From the UHGV virus genome UHGV-1769846: a stretch of 15,384 nucleotides of DNA; one strand, given 5' to 3'. Position numbers and translations under genes: made by a program. This document shows, one piece after another, positions 1 to 15,384 of the stretch (position 1 is the stretch's first letter; each line of letters starts with the position of its first letter). The notes under the pieces are model-generated. The model saw only the letters and a list, made by a program, of their open reading frames with translations, was not told the origin of the DNA and searched no databases. Source of the stretch: a virus.

Positions 1-55
1 GACTATCACTTATTTAAGTGATATTGGTTGTCTGGAGATTCAGGGGGCCAGTCTA
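1..55 (-). mobile_element. Terminal 55 bp of an IS2 element (left inverted repeat end); the element continues beyond the window start
   Basis: Reverse complement of 1-55 is TAGACTGGCCCCCTGAATCTCCAGACAACCAATATCACTTAAATAAGTGATAGTC, which matches the IS2 left end as I remember it from E. coli. Orientation puts the IS2 transposase ORFs on the minus strand, off-window. Confidence 0.8.
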
Positions 56-83
56 CAATCACATTGGCTGTAATGTCTGTCAT
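56..83 (-). pseudogene. 5' remnant of the tailspike gene (P22 gene 9 homolog), interrupted by IS2
   Basis: Minus-strand ATG at 83-81 with GGAG about 8 nt upstream (92-95). It encodes MTDITANVI, matching the conserved P22/Sf6 tailspike N-terminus (MTDITANVVV...). The reading frame then runs into IS2 sequence and stops after 25 codons. Confidence 0.65.
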
Positions 84-1507: not shown

Positions 1508-1565
1508 AAGATAGCAAAGTGAGTATATCTAGTCAAAATTTTTTTGCATACACTTTGCTATCAAA
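1508..1565. promoter_or_regulatory. Divergent immI control region (Pant-like promoter and candidate Arc/Mnt operators)
   Basis: Minus-strand promoter TTGACT (plus 1531-1536), 17-bp spacer, TATCTT (plus 1508-1513), upstream of arc. Inverted repeat arms ATAGCAAAGTG (1511-1521) and CACTTTGCTAT (1551-1561) flank a 29-bp AT-rich core. The plus-strand mnt promoter is not cleanly resolved. Confidence 0.5.
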
Positions 1566-1585
1566 TTGAATACCAAAGGTGTTAT

Positions 1586-1834
1586 ATGGCAAAGGGTGTG
1601 TCAATTTCTCCAACTACGGTAAGAATCCCTGAATCTTTACGCGAGGCTCTTGCTGTCAGAGCATCAAAAAATGGTCGCTCTGTTAACTCCGAGATCGTCA
1701 TGATTTTGCAAGCCGCGATTGATGAAGATAGGTCGCCAAAGTCAGTTGAGTCATTTGCTCAGCAAGAAGCTGATAAATTCAAAGAGGCGCTACTTGAGAC
1801 GCTAAAGACCATGTATGCTAAGGATGAAAAATAA
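1586..1834 (+). CDS. mnt: Mnt-like ribbon-helix-helix repressor (82 aa)
   Basis: Translation MAKGVSISPTTVRIPESLREALAVRASKNGRSVNSEIVMILQAAI...FKEALLETLKTMYAK resembles P22 Mnt in both the RHH region and the C-terminal helix. ATG at 1586 is preceded by AGGTG; the track's TTG start at 1544 is rejected. Confidence 0.8.
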   Translation: MAKGVSISPTTVRIPESLREALAVRASKNGRSVNSEIVMILQAAIDEDRSPKSVESFAQQEADKFKEALLETLKTMYAKDEK

Positions 1835-2370
1835 TGCTGCACACAATTCATTTCTTATGCCCTGTTAACACTGCCACTGTTGGGCAACTTCAGAACCACT
1901 GTCTCACCGCATTATCTCAAGGCGCAACTGAATTAAATATCCATATATCAAGTCAGGGAGGGGAAACTGCTGCTGGCTTTACTGCGTATAACTTTCTTAA
2001 GTCACTCCCTGTTACCGTTAGAACTCACAACATAAGCAATGTTGAATCCATAGCTAATATCGTTTTCCTGGCTGGCTCAGAACGTTTCGCAAACCCATTA
2101 TCAAGATTCCTGTTACATCCTCTATTATGGTGCTTTGCCTCCCCAGCCGCCGACCATGCCAGATTGAGAGAGTACGGGAAATGCCTCGATAACGATCTTG
2201 ATCGCTTCGTTGAGACGTTCAATATCGACATCGGAACCCATATTAGGTGGGCATCCCTGATAGCAGACTCGACCATTTTGGATGCTAACAAGGCTCTTGA
2301 GCATGGCATAATTAATTCCATAAAAACTGCAAGGCTGGCATCCAATCAGGCAAACTGGTGGGTTGTTTGA
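1834..2370 (+). CDS. ClpP-like (S14-type) serine peptidase homolog, 178 aa
   Basis: Start overlaps the mnt stop (TAATG). Sequence NIHISSQGGETAAGFTAYNFLKSLPVTVRTHNISNVESIANIVFLAGSERFANPLSRFLLHPLL parallels the ClpP core (YINSPGG...AG..IYD...V.T.C.GQAASMG..LL.AG....R...P.SRVMIHQP). Candidate triad Ser72, His95, Asp145. Confidence 0.7.
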   Translation: MLHTIHFLCPVNTATVGQLQNHCLTALSQGATELNIHISSQGGETAAGFTAYNFLKSLPVTVRTHNISNVESIANIVFLAGSERFANPLSRFLLHPLLWCFASPAADHARLREYGKCLDNDLDRFVETFNIDIGTHIRWASLIADSTILDANKALEHGIINSIKTARLASNQANWWVV

Positions 2371-2394
2371 TGGGTAAATCATGATTACTCCTTA

Positions 2395-2420
2395 TAAAAA
2401 ACCCACCTGACGGTGGGTTT
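2395..2420. terminator. Bidirectional rho-independent terminator between convergent operons
   Basis: Stem CCCACC (2402-2407), loop TGAC, GGTGGG (2412-2417). Flanked by an A-run (2395-2401), giving a U-run for the minus transcript, and TTT on the plus side. Confidence 0.65.
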
Positions 2421-2868
2421 AGTCAAACATAGTGTTTCTAAAGTCTCTCGCATACCCTGCTAACACTCTCATTCTATTATGATTGTTAGCAGACATGTGA
2501 GCTACAGGATGAAAAAGAGCAATCAATGAATACCTGTTCTCATCAAAAAGATTTTGTGCATAAACGAGAGCGGTATTGGATGTTTTATGCCACTGCAACT
2601 TTTGCGGTGTGCTGATATCTGTGCCATTTTTTATTGGCTCAAATTTATTTTCACCAATTGCTAAATGAAGGTGCATAAGGCCTGCATCTTCAATATCAGG
2701 AGGTCGATGATAAGAGGTGTCTCTGCCAAAATAGCTGGGCAACGTTCCCGTAGACTTGTAGATGATAAAATCATCTACAAGTGTTTGTTTTAAATCAGGA
2801 AACTCAACAAAAACCGGGGAGAAAAAATAGTCAAAACTATCCTGATTATATTCCACGGTTACTTGCAT
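2419..2868 (-). CDS. YafO-family toxin-like protein (149 aa)
   Basis: Motifs DDFIIYKSTGTLPSYFGRD, HLHLA, ALVYAQNLFDE, LIALFHP and NNHNRM line up with E. coli YafO as recalled (FISYKRDGVLPDIFGRD, HIHLA, HLVYCQGAFDE, LIAILKP, NNQMH). GAGGT sits 5 nt upstream of the ATG, and the start is 8 nt after the upstream gene's stop. Confidence 0.7.
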   Translation of the reverse strand: MQVTVEYNQDSFDYFFSPVFVEFPDLKQTLVDDFIIYKSTGTLPSYFGRDTSYHRPPDIEDAGLMHLHLAIGENKFEPIKNGTDISTPQKLQWHKTSNTALVYAQNLFDENRYSLIALFHPVAHMSANNHNRMRVLAGYARDFRNTMFD

Positions 2869-2876
2869 GTTTTACC

Positions 2877-3443
2877 TCAGTGGAAGTTACCAGAGTGAAA
2901 CACACGAGTCCCGTGCTCAGCAAGCGCACGCAAACCAGCCATATCTACGGAACTATCAAAAACAACCGGAACACATGAGCGTTGTTTAATAAGACTATTC
3001 AGGTTGGTTACGGCAGATCTGGCATCAGCAACAACGATATAGATATCTCTTGCGATCTCTTTAAAATCAGCAGAAGCTTCTTTGAATACCGATTTCATTG
3101 CCCCTTCAAGTCCTCTCAATTGATGCTCTATCAATCGAGACTTTTCTGGTTCAATGATAGACAACACATTGTCTACATTCTCATCGGTAGCGTTTGCAAG
3201 AACACGATAAGCGTATTTCAGCATTCGAGACAATTCTTTAATCGAAGACACCGCCTCATGAAGCTCATCATTAGCCCGTTCACTGCTGAATGAGGATTGA
3301 TGGTAAGCGTGCTGAACGTTATCAGTAACAACCACCTCACAACTGAACGCAGAAGCTTGCTGTAATAGCAAACCTATTGCGACTCCAGCTTTGGCAGCGT
3401 TCAAGCTAAACATTTCATCAATCCCATTAGTCTCATTGCTCAT
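2877..3443 (-). CDS. Hypothetical protein (188 aa), upstream partner of the YafO-like gene; no recognisable family
   Basis: ATG at 3443 with a strong AAGGAGG Shine-Dalgarno 5 nt upstream; the track's TTG at 3473 is rejected. Predicted largely helical, with no DNA-binding antitoxin fold that I recognise. Confidence 0.65.
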   Translation of the reverse strand: MSNETNGIDEMFSLNAAKAGVAIGLLLQQASAFSCEVVVTDNVQHAYHQSSFSSERANDELHEAVSSIKELSRMLKYAYRVLANATDENVDNVLSIIEPEKSRLIEHQLRGLEGAMKSVFKEASADFKEIARDIYIVVADARSAVTNLNSLIKQRSCVPVVFDSSVDMAGLRALAEHGTRVFHSGNFH

Positions 3444-3510
3444 ACAAACCTCCTTCTTATCGGAGATTATCAATAGCTATGCATCCATTGAATACACGCT
3501 ATGCGCAATA

Positions 3511-3986: not shown

Positions 3987-6002
3987 TTATTGAGCTTCTT
4001 TTTGTGATGCCTGTGCGACTCTGGTGAGCGATTGTGTGACCGTACTGATCGCTATGTCATATGCTGTGCTACCTTTTGGCGTATTTGCCAGACGTAACAA
4101 GGCATTTCGTATAACAGGGCTTTCGTATGCCTTCGCAGCTCCTCCTACGACACCAGCAGCAGGAACAACAAACGCAGCCGTTTTTAGCATCCCCGCTAAT
4201 ACTGCTGCGTTTATGATGCCACCACCAACTAACAATCCATAAAGCTGCTGACCATTTAAGTTTTGAACGTTCGCTTTTGCCGCGTGTCTTGTATCGTTGA
4301 GGTATTTAATAACGCCGTCCAGTTCCTTTCCATGTACGCCTTTAAAGAAAGTTGCTGATTGCTTCCTGTTCCGGTGTAACGCATTAATAAACTTTTCAAC
4401 ACTAATATTTCCAGACGGATCAGTCGCCTTATCTACAGCATTCTGAACTATGGCTGCTCGTGCGTTTTGCCTACCATTGTCATCCAGAAGCCTGTAAAGC
4501 TGAGAACGTTCTGATGGGTTTTGGCTAAAAACGAGTTTTGTTACATCCTCAGGTGTAGCCTTGCCGCTGGCTATTGCCTTTTGAACGCGCGTTCTTCCCA
4601 TCATGTCATTGAATCTAGCCCATGAGCGATCAACCCTAGACATATTGGCAGCTTCTTCTGAGCCTAGTTTTTGGGATACTGCTTTTTTCATATCCGCTGT
4701 ATATGCCTTGTAGACAATATCGCTGGCTTTCTGGAGCGTGTCTTTATCAACAGTCTCGTTTGAATTCATGAACCGCTTTCGAAGGTCAGTTCTGTTTTCT
4801 CTCGCCAGACGCAGGTCATTGGGTCCGCTGGTGATATCGTCTTTAAATTGCTGCAAGACTTTTACCGCGGCTCTATCCTGAGATTTGCCCGGGCGGCTTA
4901 ACACGGCAATCTGATTGTCGATAGCTTTTACCGTGTTTGAGAGATCGACAGGGGTATCCCCCATAGCGTCAATTATGCGGTTATATCGCTTTCCTGCTGC
5001 CTCAATGAATTTTTGTTGCCCTTTAGTCGCAGATTCATAAAGCTGTTTATCAGAAATGCCACCCAGACCATCGCTAAATGTTCTGACTAAATTTTCTCGT
5101 GCTTGTTGTTGATTCAGCCGATTCTTACCGGTTCCAAAAAAAGGAACTCTTTCGCCTAATGTCTGAGCCTGACTCTGCATAAAGGTTTTATCTTTCAGCG
5201 TGTCACTGGTCATTAACGGCAGGTTTCTTTCCGACGCAAAATCGACAGCAGCCTTTGCTTCCGGTGACATCTCACCGCGAACAGCCCTGGAAACCGCACT
5301 AACTGTATTTTCCAGCCCCTTGCCAACACCACCAATGCCAGCAGAAATTACCGTTTGTGCAGGATCAATATCTTCTCCGCCAGCAAGGCTGGTGCCACCC
5401 TGTAGTGCTAAATCTGTAGCAGCTGATTTCCCTATGGCACCAAGCACCGTTCCAGCCCTGCCCGCTGGTGTGAACGCTAACGCATTAGCAAGAAACGAAG
5501 TCAGGTCTTGCGGTGATAAACCTGGCTTGTTCAGGGCATAATCACCGGATGGCAGGGAAACGATAGTGTTACCCTTCTCATCCTGCCTTAATTTCGCCCC
5601 CATACTCTGAAGAATCTTTTCCTGAGACGCGTCGGAGCCGAAAAGTTGAGACCATCCAGCCTTCAGGGCATCCATGCTTAGTGAGTTCAACTCAGGGGCA
5701 GCCCCAACATTTTGCAGTCTCTCCATTTCTGGTGTCATTCGGCTTTCACCGGTAACGGCATCGCGCATTGCAGCACCTAAAACAGCCCCTTGCTCAGCAG
5801 AGCGATCTAGTCCTTCCTTCTGCTGAGTGGCAAGCTGTGCATATCCTGATGCAAGTGAGTTGTCTGCTGGCGATTGCTGAACACCTTGTTGTGTTGGCGC
5901 TGACTGACCAGCAAAATACTCATCAATGGCGGACCCAATATCTTCCGTGCTCGTACCATCAGGAAAGGTAAATGTCTTACCATTTGCAGTTACTTTCATC
6001 AT
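3987..6002 (-). CDS. Ejection (injection) protein, P22 gp16 homolog (671 aa)
   Basis: Last gene of the gp7-gp20-gp16 trio by synteny. ATGA start/stop overlap with the upstream gene at 5999-6002. Large Ala/Gly-rich protein. Confidence 0.8.
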
Positions 6003-7450
6003 TCCACCGTAAATTGAATGCCTGATTTTGACGTGTAGCTACCTCCTGCTGATTGCTGAGTAGCTGGCTGTTGCCTTGATGATTTCTTCCCGCCATTACC
6101 AACATTAACGTTATATTGCTGGTTGTAATTGTCGGTATATTGCTGAATGTCGCGCATTGATTGTTGCAGCGCTTCAGGACTTGAGAAATCAGGCTTTGGC
6201 ATACCCTGAAAATACCTATTGGCCTCTGCTTCGGTGTTGATGCCAGATGCCCCCATATCTCGGGCTGCTGCAATCCCCTGATTTTGCATTTTGCCCATGA
6301 TTCGCTGTGCAGCGTTGTATAGCCTCCTCTCCTCAACACCAGATGCCCTGCTACGAATATCTGCACCAAGAGCAAAAGAACCTGAAGAACCTGTAATACC
6401 TGTCATGAAGCCAAGATCGTCAATTGATGCGCCAGAAATTGCATCAAGATCTTTCTTCATTTCGTAATTCTGTGCATTAGCTGCCGATGTAGCCGGAGCA
6501 GCAATAGAACTGGCGGGGACGCGAATCATATTGCCCTCGTTGTCTATTCCTTCGTAGAACGCATTAGCACCAGCGCCGTGAAGCTTCCTACCAACCGTTA
6601 CCGTTCTGCCATCTGCCAGTTGCACAACATTCTCCCCGCCAGCATCAGGACGACCTCGAACACGAAGATATGTCTTTTGTTGCTCTGGAGACAGGCTGTT
6701 GAAATATTGATATTCTTTAACAGATGCAGGAACAGCACCTCCAGCAGTGCGCAGGGAGTTTTCACGGCTAACAGCAATGCTTTGCGCCTTTAAACCTTCC
6801 CCAGCTTTATTGCTGCGAATCGTCTCTGCCAACTTGCCACGCTCAATATCCCGACCTTCCATTTGATCTTTGATATCGAAATACTTCTCATGACCGAGAG
6901 AAAATAGTGCCAGATTACCTGCGAAGTGCTGGAAGCCCTGCGGGTCATTAACCTGCATTTCCGCAATAGTTTCTGGAGGGATACCTAAACGACGCATCTC
7001 CTTTTCGTTATCCATCATGAACCTGCCAAATGCACCCGGACCAAGCGACGAAGCGACCTGAGCCTTAAGCGCCAGATTGCCAAAATCATCCCGCTGGGCG
7101 TCATCGACATACCCCATGCCTTTACGGACTTCCTCAAACTCTTCGGGGAATGCTGTAATAAGATTACGCATCTGCTCCCTGTCGCCGGACGCATAAGCAT
7201 CCGCATAACCTTTCTGGAATGCCGCTTTACGCTCCTGCTTTTGCTGCTGCTTATAAATATCAGCAACTCCAGCCAGACCACGAAGACCTGTCAGAGCAAC
7301 GTTATTTGCACCTGATCGAGCCAGTTCATTGTTTTCGCGGATCAGACCAAGCGTTGCGTTAATGTCGCTTGCCTTTGGCGCATTCTCATTTTGCGTACCG
7401 ATGCCAGCCAGAAACCCACCAGAATTAATACCCTGTTGCCACGTAGCCAT
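5999..7450 (-). CDS. Ejection protein, P22 gp20 homolog (483 aa)
   Basis: Synteny and size (P22 gp20 about 471 aa). AAGGG Shine-Dalgarno upstream of the ATG at 7450. Confidence 0.8.
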
Positions 7451-11408: not shown

Positions 11409-12662
11409 TTACTGCCCAGCAATAACGATGCCCGTATATTCAGGAACCAGTACAGAGCAACCGTACAGAGTGGTGAAACGCGCAGTGGTTACGCCTTTGA
11501 TGTGGTCGAAGGAGTAAGACATGATCAGCGTAGCGCCCTGCTCGGTGGTTGCTGTCATTACCTGTGGACCCTGACCAGTTGGGAACGCCAGTTTGCCGTA
11601 CATCAGTTCAACAGAACCATCAGCCCAGAACAGGTTAGCAGGTGCTGCGTTCTTGTTGAGAATGGTGATTGCTGCTGATTCTGCCGGTTTGGCATCGACG
11701 TTTGCATATGGACGACTCGCAACATCAGTATTTTCAACAGGGAGAATCTTTGGAGAAATTGTTACGGTAGTTCCGCTAACAGCCAGAACACGGAATACCT
11801 GCGGTTGACCGGTGGTATCTTTTGTGATCTGGTGTACGGAATTCACACCGGCAATGGTGAACGCATCACCAACCTGCAAGCCAGATGCAGATACCGTAAT
11901 AGTCCCCTGTCGGTTATCAACTGGCATACCATTTGAATCTTTCGCTTCAACCTTGTGTTCAGGTTGGCCTGATACTGTCAAGGATTCAGTGCTTCCTTTC
12001 GGTAATCGACCAGAAATATCGGTCTTGTAGCTATCAAAGGAAGCAACCGGAGGGATCTGCGCTTTTTCGTATGCTGTCAGGGTTGCGCCCTGAGCGTAGG
12101 CTCGGTGACCAAGCTCGCCAGCAAGGTCTTTGTAGTTGAAGGGGTTCCAAAAAGAGCGGCGGTTGATACCCTGTGGCACACCAATCGCCGTCATGGTGGC
12201 ATCAATACCTGCCGCACAGTTCCACAAATCACGGCCCTGTGAACCAGTGGTTGAGTCAGCCATTGTGATCACGTTAGTAGCACGCTGCGTGACCATGGAA
12301 ATCAGGTCAGAGTCAATCTGTGCAGCAAGGCGCATACCTGCGGCGCGACCAGCTTCAGTTTTATGTTCCGGATCACGCATTTCACGCGCATCCAGAGTGT
12401 ACAGAATGTTTTTCGGCTCCTTGAACACTGAAGGAACAAGGCGCTGAACCAGTGCTGTTGGCGTTTTGCTGCTGAGGTCGAGGCCTTCCTCAATATTCAT
12501 GTGGTAATGCTGCGGACGATACAGAACATCACCTGCTCGCTGCATTGCTGTATCACCGGGACGGAATTTTTTAGCGTTACGGGAAACTACGCAGGCGGCC
12601 TCAAAGCCTTCAACGTAGTTTTCGAACATGATTTCAAGGTCTTTTGCTAATTGGTTAGCCAT
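11409..12662 (-). CDS. Major capsid (coat) protein, P22 gp5 homolog (417 aa)
   Basis: Follows the scaffold gene; size close to P22 coat (430 aa). Shares short motifs with it (FWAD, YANV). TGGAG Shine-Dalgarno upstream. Confidence 0.9.
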   Translation of the reverse strand: MANQLAKDLEIMFENYVEGFEAACVVSRNAKKFRPGDTAMQRAGDVLYRPQHYHMNIEEGLDLSSKTPTALVQRLVPSVFKEPKNILYTLDAREMRDPEHKTEAGRAAGMRLAAQIDSDLISMVTQRATNVITMADSTTGSQGRDLWNCAAGIDATMTAIGVPQGINRRSFWNPFNYKDLAGELGHRAYAQGATLTAYEKAQIPPVASFDSYKTDISGRLPKGSTESLTVSGQPEHKVEAKDSNGMPVDNRQGTITVSASGLQVGDAFTIAGVNSVHQITKDTTGQPQVFRVLAVSGTTVTISPKILPVENTDVASRPYANVDAKPAESAAITILNKNAAPANLFWADGSVELMYGKLAFPTGQGPQVMTATTEQGATLIMSYSFDHIKGVTTARFTTLYGCSVLVPEYTGIVIAGQ

Positions 12663-13664: not shown

Positions 13665-15314
13665 TTACTGCTGTGGTTGTTGCTGAGTTGATTTTTGCAG
13701 GATGCTGCTGATGTCCATGCGCTGCGCATGGCCCTGTGCCTGACTTTTCAGGACAAGCTCTGCATCAGCACGGGCATTGTCTCCTTGCTGTTGCTGGAAC
13801 TGTCCGAGCAGTTTCAGAGCCTCGCGGATATCAGATTTCTGCTGGCTATCGGCAGATGCGAGGATTTTCACAACATTTGCCGCTGCAACCTGAGCATCAG
13901 TCTGTGCCTGGAATGCTTTAACCTGAATGGCTGCCTGCTCGTTCTGCGCTTTCTGCAATTCAGCCTGACCAGCAAGAAGCTGACCTTGCGCAGCAACCAT
14001 AGCCGGATCTGGCTGACTGGCCTGTTGTTGTTTCGCCTGCTCAACCATCTGCTGTTCTTCTGGCGTTCTCGGCTTGATAACTCCAGACAGAAGCAACTGA
14101 TTGCGGTTGTATTCTTTAAGGTCGTCCATCCCTTCGCCGTCCATATTGTCGAGGATCATCGACGATACAAGGTCGTGTTTCGGCGTTCCGGGCGGGATAA
14201 GTGCCAGCATGGAAAGTAACGACTTAACCGTTGCGTCACGGCGAGTAGCGAACGACTGACCGACATCGACAGTCACTTCATAGTTACCCTGCGAAAGGTC
14301 GTTAAGCGCGATAACCTGCCCTGTCTGACGGTCAACCACTTCACCAGTCATCAGCGCCACGTCATCGCTGCCATCCTCATTAACGATGCGCATTGGCGTA
14401 TCGCTGCCATAGACTTCACGAGCCATAGAAAGCCACACGACGCCAGCACGGCGCATGGATTTAGCCATGTTGTCCATGTAGATATAGGACTGCGTGTCCA
14501 TCCGGTTAAAGATGCTATCAACGGTATCGGTAGCGACGTTGCTCGGCATGTTCTCAAGCTGCGACGCACCTGTAATTTGCTGAATAGCCGTTCCGGTGTA
14601 CTGCAATAGCCCGGCAAGAGCTGGCGGCATTTGTGTCGGAGGTGTCCAGCCAGCAACCTGAGCTTCTGAAATGACTGTTCCGTTTTTGTCCTTCTTGCTG
14701 GTCATAGGAAGAACTGCAGGTCTTTTCTTATTCCTCTCTGCCCAGTGATTCATTAATGGGCCGGGAATGAAATCAACATCCACGATAGGAATGCCATCAC
14801 CGCCAGCCTGAGTGGCGTTATCTGCAATCATGGAAACCATCAGGTTCTCAAGACGCTGTGCATCCATCGCTTTTGCTGCGTGGCCTTCGATTCGCTCCTG
14901 ATTATCAACAAATGAGCGACGCCCATATACCGGGATGAGTGGAATATGTTCGCCCGGAATACGCTTCGGTTCTTCCAGCCATTCAGCGCCAGACAGAAGG
15001 CCGCAATAAACGCGGCGTTTCTTCACCGTTCGCTCACCAATCAGTTCGAATGCGCCATCGGTTAGCTCGTCGACAATATCTTTGATTTGATCTTCATCAT
15101 AGATTGCCGTTTCTCCGCTAACAGGGTTGCGCCACGCCGTGAGCTTCACCTTCTCTATGCGGACTTCGTAGTAACGTCCAACATAGATGGCATCTGGCGT
15201 TGACCAGTCATATTGAGTGCCAGTGTCATCACGAGAAAGGCTTGCCGCGATGGAATCAGGGTATTCAGCCTCGAACGCTTTAGGCGTCATGGAGAACATT
15301 TCCATAGCCCACAT
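13665..15314 (-). CDS. Portal protein, P22 gp1 homolog (549-aa ORF; appears to lack about 175 N-terminal residues)
   Basis: Strong similarity to P22 portal as recalled (GERTVKKRRVY, PGEHIPLIPVYG, and the Gln/Ala-rich C-terminal barrel segment DPAMVAAQGQLLAGQAELQKAQNE...RMDISSILQ). The first ATG at 15314 aligns near P22 residue 176. In-frame stops lie upstream at 15339-15341 and 15375-15377. Confidence 0.8.
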   Translation of the reverse strand: MWAMEMFSMTPKAFEAEYPDSIAASLSRDDTGTQYDWSTPDAIYVGRYYEVRIEKVKLTAWRNPVSGETAIYDEDQIKDIVDELTDGAFELIGERTVKKRRVYCGLLSGAEWLEEPKRIPGEHIPLIPVYGRRSFVDNQERIEGHAAKAMDAQRLENLMVSMIADNATQAGGDGIPIVDVDFIPGPLMNHWAERNKKRPAVLPMTSKKDKNGTVISEAQVAGWTPPTQMPPALAGLLQYTGTAIQQITGASQLENMPSNVATDTVDSIFNRMDTQSYIYMDNMAKSMRRAGVVWLSMAREVYGSDTPMRIVNEDGSDDVALMTGEVVDRQTGQVIALNDLSQGNYEVTVDVGQSFATRRDATVKSLLSMLALIPPGTPKHDLVSSMILDNMDGEGMDDLKEYNRNQLLLSGVIKPRTPEEQQMVEQAKQQQASQPDPAMVAAQGQLLAGQAELQKAQNEQAAIQVKAFQAQTDAQVAAANVVKILASADSQQKSDIREALKLLGQFQQQQGDNARADAELVLKSQAQGHAQRMDISSILQKSTQQQPQQ

Positions 15315-15384
15315 AGCATCAGAGCGGTCTGAAGTGGTTTACTGAATTTGGCCACCTGAACAGAGGTGATATGCTCACCTCAGA

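Follow-up and report, generated by a model that had tools for sequence, protein, structure and literature searches.

The inactivation and erosion of prophages by insertion sequences (IS) is a general phenomenon, and the disruption of prophage genes by such elements is a well-known, textbook type of event. In the P22-like Shigella phage Sf6 (AF547987), gene 54, the ninG homologue, is interrupted by an IS3-family element of the IS911 type, namely IS911 proper; both ends of that element and its 3-bp duplication (AAC) are visible. The closely related ISEc52 is represented in E. coli AHB22 (NZ_OZ547099) by a 1250-bp element labelled 'IS3-like element ISEc52 family transposase' in RefSeq, with a 100-aa OrfA and an OrfB scoring 307 bits against NCBIfam transpos_IS3; ISEc52 and the Sf6 IS911 are 94.9% identical across 1250 bp. 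One ISEc52 copy of AHB22 lies in the ant gene of a prophage, and another adjoins a lysozyme gene without its N-terminus.

Intact portals of the group are known from CUS-3, Sf6 (gp3, PDB 7SFS), P22 (gp1, PDB 3LJ5 and 5GAI), phage phiv205-1 (MN340231) and E. coli PA45B. The intact relatives of the locus described here encode a 732-aa portal directly downstream of the large terminase gene. Its alignments with the Sf6 portal (E=4e-249) and the P22 portal (E=1e-117), both of solved structure, extend over the full length.

We analysed a stretch of 15,384 nt (the window) that ends within such a portal gene. We consider it highly likely, from sequence comparison, that a copy of ISEc52, a 1250-bp IS3-family element of the IS911 type, has interrupted the portal gene between codons 178 and 179 in a P22-like E. 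coli prophage (Lederbergvirus, CUS-3/phiv205-1-type). Codon 179 would adjoin the left inverted repeat of the element, and the TAA and TGA codons found upstream of the remaining reading frame would be the terminal repeat as spelled in the portal frame. The features discussed are collected in Table 1.

Table 1. Features of the window (positions in the 15,384-nt window; a dot marks a feature without strand)
Feature	Position	Strand	Description
IS2 left end, 55 nt	1..55	-	reverse complement TAGACTGGCCCCCTGAATCTCC...
Tailspike remnant	54..83	-	first 10 codons only, MTDITANVIV; cut by IS2
Clp-protease-like ORF	1834-2370	+	PF00574, E=2e-11
YafO-family type II toxin	2419-2868	-	PF13957, E=3e-22
ORF of 188-198 aa, upstream of the YafO-family toxin	2877-3473	-	no Pfam match
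Portal gene, 3' three-quarters, P22-like (CUS-3/phiv205-1-type)	13665..15329	-	codons 179-732 and stop codon
549-aa ORF, mechanical	13665..15314	-	starts at internal Met184 of the portal; without Shine-Dalgarno or promoter-like site
Portal/IS breakpoint	15329..15330	.	between portal codons 178 and 179
Left end (IRL, orfA-proximal) of IS3-family element, IS911 type (ISEc52)	15330..15384	+	first 55 nt, TGAAGTGGTTTACTGAATTTGGCCACC...; holds both in-frame stops

The portal remnant and the adjoining insertion sequence

The 549-aa ORF matched the Pfam family PF16510 (P22_portal) with E=5.2e-116 and 388.9 bits (cut-off 26.1), and it covers profile positions 159-594 only, compared with 2-594 in the intact 732-aa relatives. 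The full-length domain, including the N-terminal region (about 725-732 aa in total), is not present in it: the portal of the window is without residues 1-178 (P22 1-165), a part of the single P22_portal domain that corresponds to profile positions 1-158. By these comparisons the ORF is a gene fragment and no short portal variant. The retained codons 179-732 are identical to those of the intact phiv205-1 and PA45B portals, with 0 mismatches in 1665 nt. In the alignment the ORF Met corresponds to P22 residue 171 and phiv205-1 Met184, and the insertion point to P22 D166, the offset to full-length P22 numbering being hand-counted in both cases.

Upstream of the ATG, translation in the ORF frame meets TAA at 15339-15341 and TGA at 15375-15377; read from the window end, the portal frame gives LR, a stop, AYHLCSGGQIQ, a second stop and TTSDRSDA, which runs into the ORF start MWAMEMF.... 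The two other frames of 15330-15384 contain nothing resembling a portal. No AGGAG-like Shine-Dalgarno motif was found in the 17 nt 5' of the ATG (CAGACCGCTCTGATGCT), and a consensus scan of the IS end and the ORF start, extended through an identical contig (L005, see below), detected no promoter-like or terminator-like sites.

These results agree with the first-pass annotation in the position of the ORF, the two in-frame stops with TTSDRSDA between TAA and ATG, the lack of a convincing Shine-Dalgarno sequence and the N-terminal truncation of the portal; its placement of the Met near P22 residue 176 was close to the aligned residue. The peptide TTSDRSDA had been taken as portal-like, which holds for the five codons DRSDA, while TTS and both stops belong to the foreign IS repeat.

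The boundary between the two parts was located by searching the last 785 nt of the window against complete E. coli genomes and phage genomes. All portal matches (419 E. coli and 11 phage records) begin at query base 56, which is window position 15329. The first 55 query bases are covered by no portal match and match unrelated loci instead, including the annotated end of the Sf6 IS911. Across the breakpoint (marked by a slash) the window reads ...AAACCACTTCA/GACCGCTCTGATGCTATG and the intact phiv205-1 gene ...AGCAAGCAATAT/GACCGCTCTGATGCTATG; the longer base-level comparison is ...GGCCAAATTCAGTAAACCACTTCA/GACCGCTCTGATGCTATG for the window and ...GACAGCAAGCAATAT/GACCGCTCTGATGCTATG for phiv205-1. 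The portal residues 5' of the ATG are thus DRSDA only (15315-15329), where P22 and Sf6 read DKSDA. The intact relatives read KQY (...DQDSKQY) where the window has IS sequence, and it is the terminal-repeat bases (...AAACCACTTCA) that encode TTS and both stop codons. By our own estimate about 0.8 stops are expected in 18 codons of unrelated non-coding DNA, so two are in the range of chance.

The plus strand of 15330-15384 is TGAAGTGGTTTACTGAATTTGGCCACCTGAACAGAGGTGATATGCTCACCTCAGA, with the TG... terminus and the inverted-repeat pattern of the IS911 group of the IS3 family (5'-TG...CA-3' type), and it matches ISEc52 copies at 55 of 55 positions. Thousands of E. coli records contain this 55-nt end, at up to 24 places per genome, and in about 2400 records the identity is at least 99%. 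The AHB22 element opens with these bases and closes with ...CCACTTCA. The window itself holds only these 55 nt of the IS, and the body, the right end and any target-site duplication lie beyond it. An ENA gut-metagenome contig from a separate public assembly (L005; ENA ERZ918210, k127_51197, 15,526 bp) shares this junction exactly, agrees with the window at every one of the 11,720 nt compared and reaches 126 nt into the IS; these 126 nt are identical to the AHB22 ISEc52 (126/126) and match the Sf6 IS911 at 118/126. In this contig the OrfA start (ATG AAA AAA AGA..., MKKRNFSAEFKRESAQLV) lies 73 nt from the IS tip, with the first 18 codons visible, and the end abutting the portal is therefore the left, orfA-proximal repeat. 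Relative to the phage late operon the IS transposase genes are antisense, and they are read in the direction leading away from the portal remnant.

The exact 549-aa product was found on 19 contigs of the Logan and ENA assemblies, compared with at least 1000 contigs for the intact 732-aa allele; the 24 contigs with this ORF that were read are mostly of 10-20 kb, and the samples ERR912202 and ERR4330103 contain the contig. By the count of 19 against at least 1000 the remnant is a rare derived state. The absence of changes in the retained 1665 nt argues against gradual point-mutational decay: by this measure the break is recent, and the remnant is free of further mutations.

The left end of the window and the contig boundaries

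The other end of the window lies in an IS as well. Positions 1-55 have 55/55 matches in thousands of E. coli records, identifying them as an IS2 terminus; in SK1144 this IS2 end adjoins a transposase that scores 687.6 bits against NCBIfam 'IS2 transposase TnpB' (cut-off 597). In the relatives a 981-aa endosialidase tailspike begins at the site of the tailspike remnant. Only 2 nt, the TA at 54-55, are ambiguous between IS2 and the tailspike gene.

Exactly 55 nt of a multi-copy IS at each end suggests that the window is probably one whole short-read contig, assembled from a de Bruijn graph with k=55 and bounded by two repeated IS elements. The k127 contig L005, running 126 nt into the IS, is a parallel to these ends. 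A k=55 contig would be unable to cross multi-copy repeats and would stop inside the IS, which would explain both ends and the odd length of the window. This points to a general trap: where a gene seems truncated or interrupted by in-frame stops within a few tens of bases of the end of a short-read contig, the cause is often a stub, of k-mer length, from a mobile repeat.

In a further contig (L006; Logan ERR4330103, 7894 nt) the start corresponds to window position 15315, so that the IS junction is missed by 15 nt. This start outside the IS may reflect a mixed population or low coverage of the junction in that sample.

Fate of the portal 5' part and other readings of the junction

Whether portal codons 1-178 lie beyond the IS, as expected from a simple transposition, or have been lost is a roughly even question. 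A simple insertion should have produced a 3-bp duplication, GAC, giving ...CAATATGAC and then the right repeat (TGAAGTGGTCAAC...). The 5' fragment would have 179 aa and end QYD-stop, and the far junction would read ...AGCAAGCAATATGAC/TGAAGTGGTCAAC..., in which the IS right end comes directly after portal codon 179; at the read level, ...AGCAAGCAATATGAC would be joined to TGAAGTGGTCAACAAAAAC (IS right end).

The alternative, to which we give nearly an even chance, is that the IS was already in or near the prophage and that an adjacent deletion, or recombination between IS copies, removed upstream genes (terminase, lysis genes and others) along with codons 1-178. DNA other than the portal would then lie beyond the IS, and this is a variant of the explanation by an IS junction. 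IS hits and deletions bounded by IS elements recur in other genomes with this prophage family. Two of these, L015 and L020, have lost the entire block of head and ejection (morphogenesis) genes, so that only an IS911-like element separates the early genes (ERF, anti-RecBCD) from ant or clp, and the truncated lysozyme gene beside the same-orientation ISEc52 of AHB22 is also consistent with loss of this kind. Both halves of the gene, however, flank the IS in the tailspike of L014 and in the AHB22 ant gene. IS3-family elements can produce adjacent deletions that leave no target duplication; of 83 IS events in the long-term E. coli evolution experiment, 14 were of this kind, and simple insertions were commoner, with 69 (PMC11708052).

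Seventeen N-terminal fragments of the portal were predicted, with target duplications of 0 or 2-6 bp, two variants of the N-terminal sequence, an alternative start and truncations at contig ends; an exact look-up in a collection of 15 billion proteins returned none of the 17, compared with 19 contigs for the 3' fragment. These look-ups assume that the unseen N-terminal sequence is exactly as predicted and that the gene caller behaved accordingly. Clusters of homologous proteins do not separate such fragments from the full-length portal. The JGI metagenomes contain neither the predicted 5' junction pattern nor the known junction, and the lineage as a whole is missing from them. The missing fragments argue weakly against a simple insertion, and not against the IS junction.

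An assembly or sequencing artefact, in which a chimeric portal-IS join or a base-calling error hides an intact gene, is very unlikely. The window does look like a draft contig, and the junction 30-mer was not found in complete E. coli genomes, genome_contigs, viral_contigs or JGI metagenomes, so these collections offer no long-range assembly confirming the architecture. However, the portal and the IS have nothing in common at the join by which a k-mer assembler could have been misled, the separate k=127 assembly contains this junction too, with 126 nt of the IS, and the ORF recurs on 19-24 ENA and Logan contigs.

Practically no weight can be given to slow cryptic-prophage decay in which the portal sequence continues upstream, altered by a frameshift or by two nonsense mutations. 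TAA and TGA do lie in the ORF frame, and the DRSDA before the ATG matches portals. But no frame upstream of 15329 shows homology to portals; IS sequence stands there instead, its 55 nt identical to IS ends at thousands of loci, and slow decay is incompatible with 0/1665 changes in the remaining gene.

A natural portal of about 550 aa starting from this Met, with the terminase gene ending just upstream, was also considered and rejected. The first-pass annotation had named such portals in related phages, together with a terminase end at 15319, as the finding that would speak against a truncation; the relatives have 732-aa portals, and their terminase ends 534 nt further upstream.

Prophage context, consequences and comparison with known systems

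The late module is collinear with that of Lederbergvirus, to which the prophage belongs (portal, scaffold, coat, gp4, gp10, gp26-region, gp7/gp20/gp16, immI with arc/ant, tailspike), and the gene order and Pfam families agree with the CUS-3/phiv205-1-type relatives. The window is 98.2% identical over 15.3 kb to prophages in S88, APEC O1, ATCC 11775 and others, and 97.7% identical to phiv205-1 across 71% of its length. All genes between the ISEc52 end and the IS2 end are full length compared with the relatives. Related E. coli genomes also carry an IS3-family element in this module, in the gp16 gene (L012) or inside the tailspike gene (L014).

The immI/moron region between the ejection genes and ant (1544-3473) carries cargo genes, namely the Clp-protease-like, YafO-family toxin and adjacent ORFs of Table 1, and Arc-family repressors are encoded in this region too.

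Two labels in public records of the relatives deserve mention. The phiv205-1 gene that follows the scaffold gene (5668-6730 in MN340231) is labelled 'terminase small subunit'; judging by its position and by the PF11651 (P22_CoatProtein) match of the identical window gene at 11409-12662, it is the major coat protein gene, and the public record is misannotated. Beyond the window, a gene of 146 aa that overlaps the large terminase start (phiv205-1 613-1053; AHB22 23480-23920) bears the label 'HNH homing endonuclease' in the phiv205-1 record but is 'hypothetical' in RefSeq; it sits at the position expected for the small terminase.

With the portal broken by ISEc52, a full-length portal could not be made: the first 183 residues would be missing, and since they belong to the single portal domain, a functional portal would be impossible. 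The 549-aa remnant would have no ribosome-binding site or promoter of its own, and late transcription would reach the scaffold and coat genes only after passing through 1.25 kb of antisense IS. With the portal and the tailspike both destroyed, the prophage would be expected to yield no infectious particles. IS2 in the tailspike gene together with the truncated portal makes the prophage very probably defective.

The first-pass annotation was right about IS2, which cuts the tailspike gene after codon 10. Its proposal of a decaying, cryptic prophage is retained as far as the defect is concerned and abandoned as to gradual decay, the retained 1665 nt being 100% identical to the intact allele. The frameshift or sequencing error that it offered as another cause is not upheld, as the stops lie in an ISEc52/IS911-type element abutting codon 179.

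It is extremely unlikely that the 549-aa remnant is expressed, by read-through of late or IS transcripts, and acts in a dominant-negative manner on the portal rings of superinfecting P22-like phages, which would make it a domesticated exclusion factor instead of debris. The missing Shine-Dalgarno and promoter-like sites and the rarity of the lineage (19 contigs, compared with at least 1000) lend no support to its expression.

The correct annotation would be a pseudogene of the portal, disrupted by ISEc52 where the contig ends, in place of a short portal variant or a gene carrying nonsense mutations; the locus has little significance beyond that. It would be a further example of a K1-type (CUS-3-like) prophage of extraintestinal E. 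coli put out of action by IS elements, and IS damage to a prophage can fix its cargo genes in the chromosome.

Taken together, the locus is close to both systems described at the outset. The Sf6 IS911 shares the terminal repeat architecture (TGAAGTGG...CCACTTCA), and its orfA-proximal end is 93% identical to window 15330-15384; Sf6, however, is viable and the nin-region gene affected in it is non-essential, whereas the gene struck here is essential for the virion. AHB22 has the identical IS end and the same CUS-3-like prophage type (98.2% identity over the window), and differs in the genes hit, ant being split there and the lysozyme gene lacking its N-terminus, while its 732-aa portal is intact. 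Compared with IS-driven prophage erosion in general, nothing is notably different in the present case, in which IS2 and, in all likelihood, ISEc52 lie in two essential late genes of one prophage.
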